The position numbers were made by a program, and so were the translations under genes. From an uncultured Acidobacteriota bacterium (GTDB lineage Bacteria > Acidobacteriota > Vicinamibacteria > Vicinamibacterales > CAVVIG01), in assembly GCA_963837345.1 (NCBI GenBank), contig CAWIMX010000001.1, positions 3,086,959-3,150,958 on the forward strand: a DNA stretch of 64,000 nucleotides, written 5' to 3'. The first letter of the stretch is position 1, and each line of letters starts with the position of its first letter. The notes beneath the pieces were generated by a model. The model saw nothing but the letters and a program-made list of their open reading frames with translations, had not been told where the DNA came from and did no database searches. Positions 1,529 through 7,603 of the stretch are shown piece after piece.

Positions 1529-2887
1529 ATGAGCACGACGTGGAGACATTTCGGTGTGCTGGGCCTCGTTCTCGCCGTAGGCGCCGCCGCACCGAGCGTT
1601 GCGTCGGCGGCCGACGCAACGAGCACACCAACGTTCACCAAAGACATCGCACCGATCCTCCAGCAGAAGTGCGAAGCCTGCCATCGGCCGGACTCGATTG
1701 CCCCGATGTCGCTTCGGACCTATGAGGAAGCGCGTCCGTGGATCCGCTCGATTCGCGCGCGCGTCGCCGATCGCAACATGCCACCCTGGAGCATCAGCAA
1801 GGCCGTGGGCATCCAGGAATTCAAGAACGACCGGTCGCTGAGCGACGATCAGATCGCGACGATCCTTGCGTGGATCGACGGCGGCGCGCCGAAGGGCGAC
1901 GCGAAGGACATGCCGGCGCCTGTGCAGTGGCCGACGGGCCAGGGCTGGTACTACGCGTCGATGTTCGGCCAGAGCGAGCCCGACCTGATCATCCAGTCCA
2001 CGCCGTGGACGCAGAAGGCCGGCGCGAACGACACCTGGTGGCGGCCGGTCGTCGAGACCGGGATCACCGAACCGCGGTGGGTGCGCGCCATCGAGATCCG
2101 GCCCCACACCGTGAAGGGTCGCAAGATCACCCACCACGCCATCGCGCGTCTGGAACAGGACGAGGACAACCCGCTGTTCGCGGTGAGCGACGATCCGGAT
2201 CTGGCCGCCCAGGGCGGCACGTTCATGGAATGGGCGGTGGGCAAGCAGGGCGAGTTGATGCGTCCTGACAGCGGCAAGCTGATGATGCCCGGCTCGCGCA
2301 TCCATTGGGACATCCACTACCACGGCGTCGAGGAAGACATCACCGACTACGTCGAGCTCGGCATCTACTTCTACCCGAAGGGCCAGGAGCCGAAGTACCG
2401 CCAGGTGCTGCACCTGATGGGCGCGACCAATGCGGGCGGCGTGGACATTCCGCCGAACACGGTCAAGGCCACCCAGGGCTTCTTCGTGCTGAAGGAGAAC
2501 GCGCGCGTGGAGAGCTTCCAGCCGCACATGCACCTTCGCGGCAAGGCGATGGAGATGGACGCGATTCTGCCGAGCGGCCAGATCCAGGTGCTGAGCTACG
2601 TCGGCCAGTTCGACTTCAACTGGATGACGAGCTACTTCTACGCAGACGATGCGGCTCCGCTCTTCCCGAAGGGCACGATCCTCCGGATCACGGGCTGGCA
2701 CGACAACACCGCCGCGAACAAGAACAACCCGGATCCGAACGTCTGGGTTGGCTACGGCGACCGCACCGTCGACGAGATGGCGCACGCGTGGGTGAACGTC
2801 ACCTACATGAGCGACGACGACTACAAGGCCGAGGTCGAGGCGCGCAAGACGCGTCTGGCCGAGAAGAGCCAGCAGCAACAGCAGTAA
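1529..2887 (+). CDS. secreted haem-c (CxxCH) domain fused to a PHM/DBH-like two-copper monooxygenase fold
   Basis: ATG 1529 is preceded by GGAG (the track ORF starts upstream at 1415). Signal peptide LGLVLAVGAAAPSVASA. DIAPILQQKCEACH haem-c motif. Ligand-like pattern KITHHA, WDIHYHG, QPHMHLRGK, VDEMAH is colinear with the CuH/CuM sites of peptidylglycine alpha-hydroxylating monooxygenase. Confidence 0.8.
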   Translation: MSTTWRHFGVLGLVLAVGAAAPSVASAADATSTPTFTKDIAPILQQKCEACHRPDSIAPMSLRTYEEARPWIRSIRARVADRNMPPWSISKAVGIQEFKNDRSLSDDQIATILAWIDGGAPKGDAKDMPAPVQWPTGQGWYYASMFGQSEPDLIIQSTPWTQKAGANDTWWRPVVETGITEPRWVRAIEIRPHTVKGRKITHHAIARLEQDEDNPLFAVSDDPDLAAQGGTFMEWAVGKQGELMRPDSGKLMMPGSRIHWDIHYHGVEEDITDYVELGIYFYPKGQEPKYRQVLHLMGATNAGGVDIPPNTVKATQGFFVLKENARVESFQPHMHLRGKAMEMDAILPSGQIQVLSYVGQFDFNWMTSYFYADDAAPLFPKGTILRITGWHDNTAANKNNPDPNVWVGYGDRTVDEMAHAWVNVTYMSDDDYKAEVEARKTRLAEKSQQQQQ

Positions 2888-2928
2888 CGTCTGGTCGGCC
2901 GACCTCGTACTTCGAAGCAAGGTTCCAA

Positions 2929-2955
2929 GGCGCCACCGGCACGGCCGGTGGCGCC
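2929..2955 (+). terminator. 12-bp perfect GC hairpin between the two co-oriented genes (attenuator, partial terminator or processing site)
   Basis: GGCGCCACCGGC-ACG-GCCGGTGGCGCC followed by TCCCTTTC. An AGGAG RBS for the next gene follows. Confidence 0.4.
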
Positions 2956-2984
2956 TCCCTTTCGATCAGGAGCGAATTCTCATC

Positions 2985-3950
2985 ATGCATGTCAATCGGT
3001 CCGCGGTTGCGGCGCTCGCCGCAATCGTCGTAGCCGGCTGGATTGCCGTGGGTGCGGGCCAGCAGACGCCGCCGACCGGCATCCTGCCGGGGCCCTACCT
3101 CGCCAGTGGCGAGGCGATCTATCCGGCCTTCGAAGGCTGGGGTCCGTTGAAGAACGGGGCCAACGTCGCACTCATCGGCTATTACAACCGCAACAAGGAT
3201 CAAGAGCTCGATATCCCGATCGGCCCGAACAACCATTTCGAACCGACCGCCGACATGGGGCAGCCCACGCACTTTCTCACGGGCCGGCAGTGGGGCGTCT
3301 TCGCCCTTCCGCTGCCGAAGGATTCCACCAACGATCGCCTGACCTGGACGCTGGTCGCCAACGGCCAGACCGCCAAGGTGACCTTCTGGGCCAATCCGCC
3401 CTACTGGGTCGACTTCTTCAAGTTCGCCGCGACCGGAAACACGCCGCCGACGATCCGCTTCGAAGCAACCGCGGAGGGCCAGGCCGGCCCGTGGCCGGAG
3501 CCCGTCGCCAAGACGTTCAACGTCGCGGTGAACCAGCCGCTCGATCTCGAAGTGTTCGTGAGCGACCTGGGGGCCACCTACGATCCGTATGAGGGACTCG
3601 GCGGAGCCGCGGTGGCCAACGCCGACCGCGGGCGGGCCGGGCGCGGCGCCGCCGCCGCTGGTCGCGGTCGGGGCCGTGGCGGGCCCCCCGCAGACGTGAC
3701 GTTCGAATGGTCGAAATACCGCGGCCCCGGTTGGGTCTCGATCGACGACCCCACGCTCGAGCTCCGCAAGAAGCGCGAGGCGGGCAAGGTCGTCGACGAG
3801 AACGAGGTCATGCAGGCCAAGACCGAGGCGTGGTTCGACACGGCCGGCGAGTACTGGCTCATGGGCCAGGCCAAGGACGATTCGAGCACGCGCGGCGGCG
3901 GCGACCAGTGCTGCTGGTCGACCACGCACGTCAAGGTGAATGTGAAGTGA
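2985..3950 (+). CDS. secreted hypothetical protein with internal Arg/Gly-rich linker
   Basis: 321-aa ORF with AGGAG RBS. Signal peptide AALAAIVVAGWIAVGAGQQ. Low-complexity DRGRAGRGAAAAGRGRGRGG segment. C-terminal GGGDQCCWSTTH. Directly downstream of the haem/Cu protein. Confidence 0.75.
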   Translation: MHVNRSAVAALAAIVVAGWIAVGAGQQTPPTGILPGPYLASGEAIYPAFEGWGPLKNGANVALIGYYNRNKDQELDIPIGPNNHFEPTADMGQPTHFLTGRQWGVFALPLPKDSTNDRLTWTLVANGQTAKVTFWANPPYWVDFFKFAATGNTPPTIRFEATAEGQAGPWPEPVAKTFNVAVNQPLDLEVFVSDLGATYDPYEGLGGAAVANADRGRAGRGAAAAGRGRGRGGPPADVTFEWSKYRGPGWVSIDDPTLELRKKREAGKVVDENEVMQAKTEAWFDTAGEYWLMGQAKDDSSTRGGGDQCCWSTTHVKVNVK

Positions 3951-3992
3951 CGTCCTCAGGAAACTGAGGCACTCGGAGACTGACGAAACGGG

Positions 3993-4018
3993 GCGGGCCT
4001 TCGGGCCCGCTTTTTTTT
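3993..4018 (+). terminator. intrinsic terminator
   Basis: GCGGGCC-TTCG-GGCCCGC stem with a UUCG-type tetraloop followed by T8. It lies 43 nt after the stop of the 2985-3950 gene, and the T-run touches the stop codon of the convergent DAHP synthase gene. Confidence 0.85.
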
Positions 4019-5073
4019 CAGGCGCGCCGCTGCTGGGCGCCGGCGAGCAGCTCGAGGATCGGTTCGGTCTGCTCGAGCGACAGGCACGCGTCTGTGATGC
4101 TCTGGCCGTAGACCGCCGGTTGCCCGGGCACGTAGTCCTGCCGGCCTTCGACCAGGTGGCTTTCGAGCATGACGCCGAAGATCCGGGGCGAGCCCCCCGC
4201 GATCTGTCCCGCGAGATCGGCGGCCACTTCGATCTGGCGGAGGTGATCCTTCCGGCTGTTGCCATGTGAACAGTCCACCATCACCGCTTCGCGGAGCCCG
4301 CGGTGCGCGAGCCGCTCGCACACCTTGGCGACGTGCCCGGCGTCGTAGTTGGGCCCGGTCCGCGAGCCGCCCCTCAGAATCACGTGGCAGCTGTCGTTGC
4401 CCGACGTCTGGAAGATGGCCGAGACGCCCTGCTTGGTCACCGACGGAAACCAGTGGTGCGATCGGGCCGTGAGCACCGCGTCGATGGCCGCCTCGACTCC
4501 GCCGTCGGTCGTGTTCTTGAATCCCACCGGCATCGACAGGCCCGAGGCCAGCTCGCGGTGCACCTGGCTTTCGGTCGTTCGGGCGCCGATGGCGACCCAC
4601 GACGTCAGGTCGGCGATGTGCTGCGGCACCTGCGTGTCCAGGAACTCCGACGCGGTCGGCAGGCCCATCTCGTTCACGTCGACCAGCAGGCGCCGGGCGA
4701 GGCGCAGTCCCTTGTTGATGTGAAAGCTCTCGTCGAGGTCGGGATCGTTGATGAGGCCTTTCCAGCCGACCGAGGTCCGGGGCTTTTCGAAGTACGCGCG
4801 CATGACGACCACCAGGGCATTCGCGTAGCGGCGGGCGAGCGCGTTCAAACGGTTCGCGTATTCGAGCGCGGCCGTCGTGTCGTGGATCGAGCACGGTCCG
4901 GCCACGATCACGAGGCGGGGATCGCGTCCCGCCAGGATCTCCGTGATCGCCTGGCGCGCGTCGGCCACCACGTTCGAGGCCGATTCCGAGATCGGAATCT
5001 CCTCGAGCAGGATCGCCGGCGGGATCAGCGGTCGGACGTCCCGGATGCGAAGGTCGTCGGTCGGGCGGCGCAT
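4018..5073 (-). CDS. aroG: 3-deoxy-7-phosphoheptulonate (DAHP) synthase, class I (AroF/G/H type)
   Basis: 351-aa ORF. DLRIRDVRPLIPPAILLEE...RLVIVAGPCSIHD...KPRTSVGWKGLINDP are typical of class I DAHP synthases. TATACT -10-like box and GAGG RBS lie upstream on the minus strand (5091-5096). Confidence 0.92.
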   Translation of the reverse strand: MRRPTDDLRIRDVRPLIPPAILLEEIPISESASNVVADARQAITEILAGRDPRLVIVAGPCSIHDTTAALEYANRLNALARRYANALVVVMRAYFEKPRTSVGWKGLINDPDLDESFHINKGLRLARRLLVDVNEMGLPTASEFLDTQVPQHIADLTSWVAIGARTTESQVHRELASGLSMPVGFKNTTDGGVEAAIDAVLTARSHHWFPSVTKQGVSAIFQTSGNDSCHVILRGGSRTGPNYDAGHVAKVCERLAHRGLREAVMVDCSHGNSRKDHLRQIEVAADLAGQIAGGSPRIFGVMLESHLVEGRQDYVPGQPAVYGQSITDACLSLEQTEPILELLAGAQQRRA

Positions 5074-5128: not shown

Positions 5129-6760
5129 CTAGGGGATCGCGAACGCCGTCAGGTTCGTGCCGGCCGGCACGAGCACGATCTGCTTTCCGTCCAGCATATA
5201 GGTGACGGGCGACGTTCCGTGCAGGTTCGACCCGAGCTGATAGTGGTACAACATCCGCCCGGTCCGCGAGTCGAGGGCGTAGAAGTTCCCTTGGGCGTCG
5301 CCCGAGAAGACCAGGCCCGAGGCAGTGGTCAGGACGCCCGACCACGACGGCGACGGGTACGTGAATTCCCAGCGCCGCTCTCCCGTCCGGGGATCGATGG
5401 CGCGCAGCGCGCCCCAGGGCTCGTCGCTGCCCGGCGCCCGCGCCGTGGCGCCGCCCGTGAAGCTGTCGCCGGGATTGTAGTCGGGCGCCCACGCGAAGAA
5501 CGTGGCGCACGTTTCACGGGCCGTCACGAAGAACAACTGGAGGTCGGGGTCGTAGGACGGCGGCATGAAATTCGTCCCGCCGACGAGATCGGGGCAGGTG
5601 ATCGATCCCTTCTCGTCGGGCGTATGTCCCGGCAGGGTCACGGGCCGTCCGTCCGCGCCCACGTCCTTGGCCCATGTGGTCTCGACGAACGGCTTCGCCA
5701 CGATCGGACGGCCCGTCGTGCGATCGAGCGTGTAGAAGAAGCCGTTCCGGTTCGCCACCATCACGACCTTGCGCGGCTGGCCGTCGATGGTGAGGTCGGC
5801 CAGCACGGGCACGTGCGTCGAGTCCCAGTCGTGGACGTCGTGCGGCGTGAACTGATAGTGCCACTTGAGCGCGCCCGTGTCGGCGTCGAGCGCCACGAGC
5901 GAGGTGGCATAGAGGTTGTCGCCCTCGCGGCTGGCCGAATGGTAGTCGGGGCTGGGGTTGCCGGTGCCGTAGAACACCAGGTTCTGGTCGGGATCGTAGG
6001 TGCCCGTCGTCCAGACGGAGGCACCGCCGCGCTGCCAGGAATCGCCGGTCCAGGTGTCGCTGCCCGGTTCCCCGGGACCGGGCACGGTATAGAAGCGCCA
6101 TGCGCGCGTGCCGGTTTCCGCCTCGTACGCGTCGATGAACCCGCGAATGCCGTATTCGCCGCCGGCCACGCCGACGATCACTTTGTCTTTCACGACCAGG
6201 GGTGCGATGGTGGACGCGTAGCCCTTCTGGTAGTCCTCGAGGACCGTATCCCAGACGACATCACCGGTGCGCATGTCGAGCGCGAGCAGGTGCGCGTCGA
6301 GCGTCGTCATGAAGAGCTTGTCGCCGAGGGCGCCGAAACCCCTGTTGACGAGCCCGCAGCAGGCCGTGAGGCCGCGGGCCGGCAGCTCGCGCCGGTAGCG
6401 CCAGATCGGGCGCCCGGTGCGCGCGTCGAGCGCGAACGCGACGTTCTGCGGGCCGGTGACGTACAGCACGTTGTCGAGCACGAGTGTCGTGGTCTCGAAC
6501 CGTCCGAGCGTGTCGGTCTGGAAGGTCCACAGAGGCGTCAGCCGCCCGACGTTGTCCGGGGTGATCTGCGTGAGCGGGCTGTGGCGGTGGCCATCGTAGC
6601 TGCCGGCGAACATCAGCCACTTGCCGGGGTCCGCCAGCCCATTCATCAGGTCCTGGCTGTTCACGGTCGGCGCGCGCTGGGCGAGCAGCGGCGCGGCGGC
6701 GAGCGCCGCGAGGGCCGCGCCAAGCAGAAGTCTTCGCCGGGACGGTGCCTGCATCGTCAT
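5129..6760 (-). CDS. PQQ-dependent dehydrogenase (quinoprotein alcohol dehydrogenase family)
   Basis: 543-aa ORF. Tat/Sec-like signal RRRLLLGAALAALAAAPLLAQ. Vicinal Cys pair LTACCGLVNRG is characteristic of PQQ alcohol/methanol dehydrogenases. Repeated W-containing beta-propeller blades. Confidence 0.88.
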   Translation of the reverse strand: MTMQAPSRRRLLLGAALAALAAAPLLAQRAPTVNSQDLMNGLADPGKWLMFAGSYDGHRHSPLTQITPDNVGRLTPLWTFQTDTLGRFETTTLVLDNVLYVTGPQNVAFALDARTGRPIWRYRRELPARGLTACCGLVNRGFGALGDKLFMTTLDAHLLALDMRTGDVVWDTVLEDYQKGYASTIAPLVVKDKVIVGVAGGEYGIRGFIDAYEAETGTRAWRFYTVPGPGEPGSDTWTGDSWQRGGASVWTTGTYDPDQNLVFYGTGNPSPDYHSASREGDNLYATSLVALDADTGALKWHYQFTPHDVHDWDSTHVPVLADLTIDGQPRKVVMVANRNGFFYTLDRTTGRPIVAKPFVETTWAKDVGADGRPVTLPGHTPDEKGSITCPDLVGGTNFMPPSYDPDLQLFFVTARETCATFFAWAPDYNPGDSFTGGATARAPGSDEPWGALRAIDPRTGERRWEFTYPSPSWSGVLTTASGLVFSGDAQGNFYALDSRTGRMLYHYQLGSNLHGTSPVTYMLDGKQIVLVPAGTNLTAFAIP

Positions 6761-6790
6761 CTCCTGTGGCGACTGCCGCGCGTCGCCGGT

Positions 6791-7603
6791 TTACTGCGCG
6801 CCCCGGAGCGTGCCCAGGTACTGCAACAGGTCGTTGAGGTCGGCTTCGCTGAGGCGGTCGGGTCCGTACGCCGGCATGGCCGATCGCGCGCCGTCGGTGA
6901 CTGCGCGCAGGTCGTCTTTGAGGTAGCCCTGAATACGCTCGCCCGTATCCATGATCTGCACCGAGAACAGATCCTCGTTCTTCTTCACGCCGCGTACGGC
7001 TCGGCCATCGGGCAGGGTGAGCGTGACGGGCTCGTAGCCCGCTCGCGGCTCTTCGTTGGCGCCGCGGATCTGGCGGACGAGCGCCGCACGCGCCCTCGCG
7101 GCGCCGATCCGCGACAAATCGGGTCCCAGGCGGCCTCCACGGCCGTTCACGCGATGGCAGCTGGCACATTGCGTGCGGAAGAGGCGCTCGCCGTTGGCCG
7201 CGTCGCCCGTCGGCGCGGCGGCGGGGGCCACGTTGAGCGTTCTCAGATACGCGAGGATCCGCCACACGTCGTCGTCGTGAACGCGCACGCCGGCGGCCGG
7301 CATCTCCGTGCCGGGAATGCCCGATCGAATCGTCTGGAACAATCCAGCATCGGTGCGGCCGCTCGCCCACACCGCCGTGAGATCCGGGCCGCGGACGCCT
7401 GTGGCGTCCATGCCATGGCAGTTGGCGCAGCGCGCCCGGAACAGACCCTGGCCGTTGCGAATGGCGTCGGGATTGCCGGCCAGCGGATTCTGCGGAGCGC
7501 CGGTCTGCGGTGCGGCGGCCAGGGAGACGCCGACGAGGACGCCGAGCGCCGCGGCGAGGGCGGGTCTCTTGACAGGCATGGCCGCCTCCTGGTGGAGCGC
7601 CAA
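6791..7603 (-). CDS. dihaem c-type cytochrome (likely electron acceptor of the PQQ dehydrogenase)
   Basis: 270-aa ORF with a signal peptide. Two CxxCH motifs (CANCHG, CASCHR). Lies immediately upstream of, and co-oriented with, the PQQ enzyme. Confidence 0.88.
   Translation of the reverse strand: MALHQEAAMPVKRPALAAALGVLVGVSLAAAPQTGAPQNPLAGNPDAIRNGQGLFRARCANCHGMDATGVRGPDLTAVWASGRTDAGLFQTIRSGIPGTEMPAAGVRVHDDDVWRILAYLRTLNVAPAAAPTGDAANGERLFRTQCASCHRVNGRGGRLGPDLSRIGAARARAALVRQIRGANEEPRAGYEPVTLTLPDGRAVRGVKKNEDLFSVQIMDTGERIQGYLKDDLRAVTDGARSAMPAYGPDRLSEADLNDLLQYLGTLRGAQ

Follow-up and report, generated by a model that had tools for sequence, protein, structure and literature searches.

A Secreted Haem-c Protein with a PHM/DBH-Like Two-Copper Core and a Linked Ig-Like Neighbour: a Candidate Periplasmic Copper Monooxygenase of Acidobacteriota

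Two adjacent genes on the same strand, here named A and B, span positions 1529-3950 of a 64-kb stretch of DNA (64,000 nt of contig CAWIMX010000001.1, hereafter the window; GC content 66-71%) from an uncultured bacterium of the order Vicinamibacterales, phylum Acidobacteriota. The protein encoded by gene A is predicted to be exported and to combine a haem-c domain with a core that resembles the two-copper monooxygenases peptidylglycine alpha-hydroxylating monooxygenase (PHM) and dopamine beta-hydroxylase (DBH) in fold and metal sites, and gene B, which accompanies A at almost every locus analyzed, encodes a predicted secreted protein with two immunoglobulin-like (Ig-like) domains. We propose, with a probability of roughly 60%, that A is a periplasmic copper monooxygenase which electrons enter through the haem and which has B as its partner. 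The homology of the fold and metal sites of A to those of PHM and DBH is, in our judgement, very probable. Both genes had been outlined before in a preliminary description made from the sequence of the window, and the claims of that description are revisited below together with the results that bear on them.

Predicted Fold and Metal Sites of Protein A

The AlphaFold2 model of A, built on a 61-sequence alignment (confidence score pLDDT 82.8; predicted template modelling score, pTM, 0.81), consists of a helical domain (aa 36-117), two beta-sandwiches (about aa 150-285 and 288-427), and a long C-terminal helix. In a Foldseek comparison of this model with the PDB, ranks 1-31 were occupied by human DBH (4ZEL) and rat PHM only, with E-values from 1.5e-10 to 9e-8, a probability of 1.00, target-normalised template modelling (TM) scores of 0.54-0.62, and alignments of about 300 columns that run across both domains at 13-15% identity; from rank 32 onward the list comprised generic sandwiches, viral jelly rolls among them, with TM scores below 0.2. 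A hidden Markov model of the divergent family, compared with the PDB sequences, likewise matched DBH (E 6.9e-8) and PHM (E 3e-7) with both domains covered. In these alignments the copper ligands are in register. For the CuH site, the family consensus vHH corresponds to VHHM of PHM (H107, H108) and to H202 and H203 of A, and the consensus qvHY, which holds the third ligand, to QVHY (H172) and H263; for the CuM site, HmH corresponds to HTH (H242, H244) and to H333 and H335, and deM to DEM (M314) and M417 (PHM residue numbers are taken from the printed PHM chain with an offset of +44).

The ligands also stand out in the conservation pattern of the family. An alignment of 33 sequences that are 30-50% identical contains 18 invariant columns, among them C48, C51, H52, and M84 of the haem-c domain and H202, H203, H263, H333, H335, and M417 of the core. 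Among 150 representatives of 50%-identity clusters, counted over non-gap residues, the ten putative metal ligands are 97-100% conserved and neighbouring positions vary freely; for instance, the CuH-type ligands H202, H203, and H263 are retained in 122 of 125, 122 of 124, and 118 of 121 sequences, and the CuM-type ligands H333, H335, and M417 in 110 of 110, 111 of 113, and 96 of 97, respectively. Moreover, 15 of the 33 aligned members match the Pfam family Cu2_monoox_C (best E 6e-7), and five of the 33 match Cu2_monooxygen.

The two-copper core had been postulated in the preliminary description from a series of short motifs, all of which were recovered from the translation of the open reading frame (ORF) in the order listed there: DIAPILQQKCEACH (aa 39-52), NMPPW (83-87), KITHHA (199-204), WDIHYHG (260-266), FQPHMHLRGKAM (330-341), and TVDEMAH (413-419). 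The postulate is upheld by three independent computations that agree with each other, namely the fold, the divergent-profile match, and the ligand conservation. In its favour, the top 31 structural matches of the model are all DBH or PHM, and the His and Met ligands are conserved at the level given above in the homologues; the suggested hmmscan against Cu2_monooxygen and Cu2_monoox_C succeeded for some relatives only and failed for A itself.

In PHM, residues R240, N316, and Y318 anchor the carboxylate of the peptide, as seen in the substrate complex 1OPM. The corresponding residues of A are Q331, H419, and W421, and these positions vary across the family, with Q331 retained in 45 of 112 representatives and H419 in 23 of 97. 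Since the counterparts of the peptide-anchoring residues are not conserved, the substrate of A is presumably not a glycine-extended peptide.

The Haem-c Domain, Export Signal, and C-Terminus of Protein A

The N-terminus of A looks like a Sec signal peptide, as described earlier, with an Arg residue, a hydrophobic core, and a predicted cleavage site (Table 1). It coincides with the sole long low-confidence stretch of the AlphaFold model (residues 1-30), and its position is variable among homologues. The domain that follows is all-helical in the model (helices 36-47, 49-52, 65-80, and 106-117) and holds the only two cysteines of the protein, C48 and C51 of the CxxCH motif; M84 is the probable sixth haem ligand, as judged from its motif and conservation. 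With the CxxCH motif and a distal Met, an all-helical domain, and a signal peptide, A presents the features of a class I-like c-type cytochrome. The signal peptide and the c-type haem motif together place the protein in the periplasm.

Matches of the haem-c domain of A to Pfam families fall below the curated cut-offs, including Cytochrome_CBB3 (17 bits, E 0.008, vs. a cut-off of 27), Haem_bd (15.3 vs. 27 bits), and PccH (14.6 vs. 24.4 bits). Cytochrome_CBB3 is matched by 31 of the 33 aligned relatives, and the N-terminal part of the divergent-family profile gives marginal PDB matches to the haem domain of the hydrazine synthase alpha subunit (E 0.003) and to PccH (E 0.005). The domain had previously been called planctomycete-type; however, the corresponding Pfam family PSCyt1 (PF07635) gave no match at E<=1 for A and none at E<=0.1 among the 33 relatives, and this part of the description is not retained. 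Thus, the proposed hmmscan against cytochrome-c families returned weak matches to the three families named above, all of them sub-threshold.

The long C-terminal helix of A ends in a run of glutamines (positions 2870-2884). A poly-Gln C-terminus of 5-8 residues is kept in nearly all Vicinamibacterales orthologues and is not found in distant relatives; we are aware of neither a function nor a sorting signal to which it would correspond.

Linkage of Genes A and B

We analyzed 86 loci with an orthologue of A, which comprise 80 species-representative genomes, five metagenomic or metagenome-assembled genome (MAG) loci, and the window. In 85 of these loci a homologue of B is the direct neighbour of A and has the same orientation, downstream in 73 and upstream in 12. 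The genes surrounding the pair differ from locus to locus, and both A-B orders occur. The earlier idea that B is a partner gene of A is thus strongly supported by co-occurrence. All-against-all clustering of the ORFs revealed no other family in more than 16 of the 86 loci, which rules out a universally conserved third gene. At the remaining locus, L062, the translations indicate that gene A (5977-7314) has a response regulator on one side and two ORFs on the other, of which one is small and the other large and permease-like, of the FtsX type; the contig carries the label Solibacteraceae, and its GC content is visibly lower.

The translation of gene B contains the features described for it before, i.e., an N-terminal hydrophobic signal indicative of secretion, an RG/A-rich linker (about aa 195-237), and the C-terminal motif GGGDQCCW (aa 304-311). 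In the AlphaFold model of B (pLDDT 81.1, pTM 0.77), two Ig-like beta-sandwiches are accompanied by a disordered insertion at about 195-237, and the signal-peptide-like start forms a long low-confidence N-terminal stretch. PDB matches of the model are generic Ig-like proteins only, with TM scores of at most 0.25, and this tandem Ig-like structure rules out that B is the peptidyl-alpha-hydroxyglycine lyase PAL, a DOMON protein, another known partner, or an enzyme that could be recognised as such; PAL is a Zn-dependent lyase with the fold of a six-bladed beta-propeller. No significant Pfam or NCBIfam family was found for B, and a PDB search with the single sequence gave nothing meaningful. Its 2,394 homologues have no Pfam domain and no descriptive names, with those named at all called "hypothetical protein."

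Conservation within B is uneven. All of 69 homologues retain C309, C310, and W311, whereas the linker is hypervariable in length, being nearly absent in some homologues and as long as about 90 residues in others. It contains, in some lineages, short conserved islands such as NFDL(T/S)AA and PPAIIGGRV, which may represent short linear motifs in a disordered region. Homologues of A that are about 45% identical to it are followed by a gene for a 276-aa B-like protein, the N-terminal domain of which is 35-38% identical to that of B (E about 1e-25); these B-like proteins have neither the RG-rich linker nor the GGGGDQCCW loop, so that DQCCW is ruled out as a catalytic element that defines the family. 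Evolution is faster in B than in A; for example, in one locus (L002) the homologue of B is 51% identical and that of A 74%.

Probable Operon Structure

Gene A starts with the ATG at 1529 within the ORF 1415-2887 and is preceded by AAGGAG 8 nt upstream. Gene B, separated from A by 97 nt, has a ribosome-binding site of its own, AGGAG 12 nt upstream of its ATG, in line with what had been noted before. A and B look like one two-gene operon, because a ribosome-binding site lies ahead of each gene and a terminator is predicted after B only. No paralogues of A or B were found elsewhere in the 64-kb window.

The intergenic hairpin reported earlier is present, and its stem measures 13 rather than 12 bp (arms 2928-2940 and 2944-2956; 100% complementarity, 3-nt loop); the RNA fold of the A-B intergenic region has a z-score of -3.2 relative to shuffled sequences. 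The hairpin is ruled out as the terminator of the operon by its lack of a U-tract and by the canonical terminator that follows B (Table 1). Perfect stems of at least 10 bp were detected in 23 of the 73 intergenic regions of A-to-B order, against a mean of about 5 in shuffled sequences. Hairpins of 13-14 bp, in which the sequences differ and the pairing is kept, occur for instance at L001 (9403-9435), L002 (9384-9419), and L003 (7439-7466), and the stems in the 73 loci often have a T-rich tail. The element has the appearance of a partial terminator, or of an element of mRNA stability, that has been conserved, and it possibly sets unequal expression of A and B.

Table 1. Predicted features of the A-B locus and adjacent genes (positions in the window)
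Feature	Position	Strand	Basis
Gene A, encoding a secreted protein of 452 aa with a haem-c domain and a PHM/DBH-like two-copper core	1529..2887 (incl. stop)	+	ORF, ribosome-binding site, homologues, AlphaFold model
Signal peptide of A, aa 1-27, predicted cleavage between VASA and AD	1529..1609	+	R6, hydrophobic core; pLDDT <50 for residues 1-30
Haem-c domain of A, aa about 33-125; C48-E-A-C51-H52 attachment, M84 (MPPW)	1625..1903	+	Invariant CxxCH and M84, weak Pfam matches
N-terminal beta-sandwich of the putative catalytic core; CuH-type site H202, H203, H263	1976..2383	+	Alignment to PHM/DBH, Foldseek
C-terminal beta-sandwich of the putative catalytic core; CuM-type site H333, H335, M417	2390..2809	+	Alignment to PHM, Pfam matches of relatives
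Long C-terminal helix of A ending in a poly-Gln tail (QQQQQ)	2813..2884	+	Helix 429-451 in the model
Intercistronic GC-rich hairpin, 13 bp, without U-tract	2928..2956	+	Pairing, RNA fold vs. shuffled sequences
Gene B, 321-aa secreted protein, two Ig-like beta-sandwich domains	2985..3950	+	ORF, homologues, AlphaFold model, adjacency to A
RG/A-rich disordered linker of B, aa about 195-237	3567..3695	+	pLDDT 39-64
D307-Q-C309-C310-W311 motif of B in a Gly-rich loop	3903..3917	+	Homologue alignment; loop confidence lower
Intrinsic terminator closing the A-B operon	3990..4013	+	10-bp stem with 7 GC pairs, then a T-run
DAHP synthase gene, between A-B and the PQQ dehydrogenase gene	4018-5073	-
PQQ-dependent dehydrogenase gene	5129-6760	-	Convergent with A-B
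Dihaem cytochrome c gene	6791-7603	-	Adjoins the PQQ dehydrogenase gene

Distribution and Domain Architectures of the A Family

At least 8000 homologues of A are present in a 90%-clustered sequence collection, and the top 120 of them, which are 72-91% identical to A, originate from Vicinamibacterales or Acidobacteria MAGs. Among 50%-identity representatives, 14,815, 8,540, and 1,691 clusters match A at E-value limits of 1e-3, 1e-10, and 1e-30, respectively, and species-representative genomes contain at least 585 A-type loci. The homologues are named "hypothetical protein," "cytochrome c," or "mono/diheme cytochrome c family protein" in the databases; some relatives may already be marked as PHM-like by automated annotation at the superfamily level. 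The preliminary description knew of no characterised bacterial enzyme with this architecture, and we found no characterised bacterial fusion of a haem-c domain with a PHM-like core in the literature searched, which is weak evidence of absence, as several of the searches were only loosely aimed and subscription journals lay outside their scope.

Longer relatives of A contain additional AhpC/TSA or Redoxin, thioredoxin-like, TPR, or EF-hand domains, and most of them show weak matches to Cu2_monoox_C and two to Cu2_monooxygen. One of these proteins (P0245) reaches 23.9 bits for Cu2_monoox_C and thus exceeds the 23-bit cut-off. Judged by these profile matches, the subfamily of A forms one branch of a bacterial superfamily at the edge of what the Pfam models can detect. 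Some relatives match A in two separate stretches, e.g., P0152 (1064 aa) and P0136 (1251 aa); the former has EF-hand motifs in addition, and the latter unites two AhpC/TSA or thioredoxin-like regions, an extra cytochrome-c match, and a PHM-like region in one chain. The architectural diversity of the superfamily is large and undescribed.

Several A-B copies occur in some genomes. For instance, three A-like ORFs are located in a single 12.5-kb locus (L016), one MAG has three A-B loci on contigs CAVZXA010000005/10 (L039, L046, L080), and another has two on contig CAVTMO010000001 (L052, L068). Orthologues 59-74% identical to A were identified on several MAG contigs (L006, L053, L066, L037, L075, L010), the labels of which include Bifidobacterium, Bifidobacteriaceae, cyanobacterium, Acidimicrobiia, and Gemmatales. 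For this gene such origins are implausible, which points to mistakes in the binning or labelling of the public entries.

Neighbouring Genes

At some orthologous loci, the operon continues from A and B into a gene for a TonB-dependent-receptor-like protein (roughly 1000 aa; CarboxypepD_reg, Plug, and an outer-membrane beta-barrel) and then into a gene for a thioredoxin-like protein of the AhpC/TSA/Redoxin type, and at other loci the thioredoxin-like gene follows B directly (extended operons at L026, L032 (8512-12340), L039, L041, L047, L052, and L075; L005, L033, and L048). A thioredoxin-like gene belongs to the operon of A in 11 of the 86 loci and echoes the AhpC/TSA domains that are fused in cis in distant relatives of A. 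As a weak clue from gene order, the extended operons suggest an imported substrate and/or thiol-dependent maturation or redox support.

In 14 of the 86 loci, including the window (Table 1), a gene for a pyrroloquinoline quinone (PQQ) dehydrogenase is located no more than 6 kb away from A-B, at varying positions and in varying orientations. Such a dehydrogenase, or the dihaem cytochrome next to it, could be the electron source for A, or its proximity could be mere synteny, and we take it as a weak clue as well. Against the former, part of the signal is shared synteny, and genes of this kind are probably numerous in these genomes.

Proposed Mechanism and Alternative Explanations

The fold of A, its homology, the register and conservation of its ligands, and the linkage of the two genes are computational observations. 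From these we infer the metal occupancy, the direction of electron flow, the monooxygenase chemistry, and the role of B as follows. Protein A would be exported by Sec, and its N-terminal domain would carry a single haem c, attached covalently through C48 and C51 and coordinated axially by His52 and Met84. The C-terminal two-thirds would constitute a homologue of the PHM/DBH core, in which the CuH-type site (H202, H203, H263) would transfer electrons and the CuM-type site (H333, H335, M417) would activate O2. A periplasmic donor would reduce the haem, which would pass two electrons, one by one, to the coppers in place of the ascorbate of the animal enzymes, and O2 bound at the reduced CuM would then hydroxylate a C-H bond of a substrate other than a glycine-extended peptide. 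B would be a dedicated partner and would most likely dock on A as a subunit without catalytic activity, e.g., to bind or present the substrate, and its Cys-Cys loop, in the subfamily of A, may handle Cu(I) or be redox-active. Ascorbate presumably does not serve as the reductant of A, since the protein is bacterial, periplasmic, and fused to a haem-c domain. The idea that the haem is the donor is reasonable in view of two precedents: a c-type cytochrome domain reduces and activates bacterial lytic polysaccharide monooxygenases (LPMOs) and yields less off-pathway H2O2 than ascorbate does (PMC8981238), and in DBH an N-terminal DOMON domain is fused to the PHM-like core (PMC12164859).

Several observations weigh against the assignment of A as a copper monooxygenase with B as its partner. 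A has no match at E<=1 to the Pfam copper-monooxygenase families Cu2_monooxygen (PF01082) and Cu2_monoox_C (PF03712) and no NCBIfam match, and searches of the PDB sequences with A alone and with a profile of its close homologues found nothing meaningful; the superfamily homology therefore rests on the match between the divergent-family profile and the PDB. The peptide-anchoring residues and the conserved disulfides of PHM are not present in A, and the direction of electron flow is not readable from sequence. With regard to B, one locus of 86 (L062) has no adjacent B gene, the CC motif is subfamily-specific and thus not essential to the core mechanism of the family, and the resemblance of the intercistronic hairpin to a terminator, seen in many loci, hints at a ratio of A to B other than 1:1.

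A could share the fold and the metal sites and yet not be a monooxygenase: as an oxidoreductase in which haem c links the coppers to the respiratory chain, it could act as an electron sink by reducing O2, H2O2, or nitrite, or it could oxidise a substrate at copper and send the electrons outward via the haem. Peroxide or thiol redox chemistry is hinted at by the AhpC/TSA or Redoxin fusions of distant relatives and by the thioredoxin-like genes in the operons, though the latter might just as well help to mature the haem or copper sites; titles of PDB entries show the PHM coppers with nitrite, azide, and CO, and the PQQ dehydrogenases found near some A-B pairs feed c-type cytochromes. On the other side, the full CuM set (His, His, Met), which in PHM and DBH defines the activation of O2 for C-H hydroxylation, is kept in at least 96 of 97 sequences, and we know of no respiratory oxidase or reductase with the PHM/DBH fold, so we consider this explanation unlikely. 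Less likely again, at around one chance in ten, would be a role of A as a protein-modifying hydroxylase acting on the GGGGDQCCW loop or the RG-rich linker of B. PHM does act on peptidyl-glycine, the genes are tightly linked, B combines an invariant GGGG-DQCC-W loop of lower model confidence with a disordered linker, and the intercistronic hairpin could set unequal levels of enzyme and substrate; however, loop and linker are missing in the B-like proteins beside ligand-complete A homologues of 45% identity, the peptide-carboxylate anchors of PHM are not conserved in A, and the part of B that is conserved family-wide is its folded N-terminal domain, as is more typical of a docking subunit.

Reading the pair as a copper storage, chaperone, or detoxification system rather than an enzyme is, to our mind, very improbable. 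It would be in keeping with the His- and Met-rich sites, with a vicinal Cys pair of the sort typical of copper binding, and with the periplasmic location of both proteins, but it leaves the fused redox haem without an obvious role, and a passive copper binder would hardly be expected to keep the exact catalytic ligand sets and the two-domain arrangement of PHM/DBH or the unusually strong conservation seen among the top 120 homologues of A; moreover, no cop, cus, or pco genes are conserved near A-B in the 86 loci. Finally, a chance pattern of His and Met on an unrelated beta-sandwich, which the missing Pfam and NCBIfam matches and the low identity of the structural alignments might suggest, is effectively refuted by the profile matches (E 7e-8 and 3e-7) over both domains with all ligands in register, by a list of fold matches headed solely by PHM and DBH, and by relatives that match both Pfam copper-monooxygenase domains.

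Comparison with Known Systems

PHM, the catalytic core of PAM (1PHM, 1OPM, 1SDW), shares with A the two-domain core (Foldseek E about 6e-10, target-normalised TM about 0.6), the HH..H ligands of CuH and the HxH..M ligands of CuM, which align residue for residue, and the extracytoplasmic location. In contrast to PHM, A is bacterial, retains 13-15% identity, has no disulfides (two cysteines in all), carries Q331, H419, and W421 in place of R240, N316, and Y318, and possesses an N-terminal haem-c domain where PHM depends on soluble ascorbate. PAM as a whole unites PHM with PAL, whereas the neighbour of A is the tandem Ig-like protein B and not a PAL-type lyase. In PHM and DBH, it is debated how electrons cross the solvent gap of roughly 11 Å between the coppers and how reduction is coupled to substrate binding. 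These animal proteins, which make amidated peptide hormones and noradrenaline, are hard to express, disulfide-rich, and glycosylated and use a diffusible reductant.

The best match of A is to the group of DBH, tyramine beta-monooxygenase, and MOXD (4ZEL; Foldseek E 1.5e-10, profile E 6.9e-8). DBH also has an extra N-terminal domain fused to the core, which is a DOMON beta-sandwich (PMC12164859); in A, the fused domain is a haem-c cytochrome by sequence, and a C-terminal helix with a poly-Gln tail takes the place of the dimerisation domain. Replacement of ascorbate by a haem protein, as proposed here for A, has counterparts in the CjX183 domain of Cbp2D from Cellvibrio japonicus, which acts on LPMOs (PMC8981238), and in the transfer from cellobiose dehydrogenase to LPMOs in fungi, but LPMOs have a single-copper histidine brace, an unrelated fold, and the cytochrome on a separate protein, whereas A would be a cis fusion to a two-copper core. 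A also shares its superfamily with uncharacterised bacterial AhpC/TSA(Redoxin)-cytochrome c-Cu2_monoox_C proteins, which combine a cytochrome with a PHM-like module and match A at phmmer E-values of 1e-55 to 1e-93. These proteins carry thioredoxin-like, TPR, or EF-hand extras and are just within the reach of Pfam, whereas A is a minimal module invisible to Pfam, with a separate B and, in some loci, a separate thioredoxin-like gene.

Implications

Protein A most likely belongs to a branch of the PHM/DBH superfamily of copper monooxygenases that is bacterial, wired to a cytochrome, and very abundant in soil Acidobacteriota. If this is true, it is evidence that the PHM/DBH family is not essentially eukaryotic, and a disulfide-free protein with a built-in haem donor visible by spectroscopy would offer a tractable model of intramolecular electron delivery to CuH and CuM. 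The assignment would also provide a function for at least 8000 A homologues and about 2400 B homologues, two large groups of proteins now called "hypothetical," and possibly reveal a new two-component architecture of an enzyme and an Ig-like partner. Going further, we tentatively suggest, at slightly less than even odds, that a large unannotated bacterial clade of PHM/DBH type consists of self-contained "wired" copper monooxygenases, in which haem c feeds CuH and CuM and the Ig-like protein B is required for substrate delivery, and which in some lineages are coupled both to a TonB-dependent receptor in the outer membrane and to a thioredoxin-like protein; periplasmic C-H hydroxylation would then be important enough in soil Vicinamibacterales to keep A 72-91% identical across species. 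Thus, if the proposal holds, soil Acidobacteriota, a dominant but poorly understood group of soil bacteria, would possess a new and abundant periplasmic oxygenase activity.

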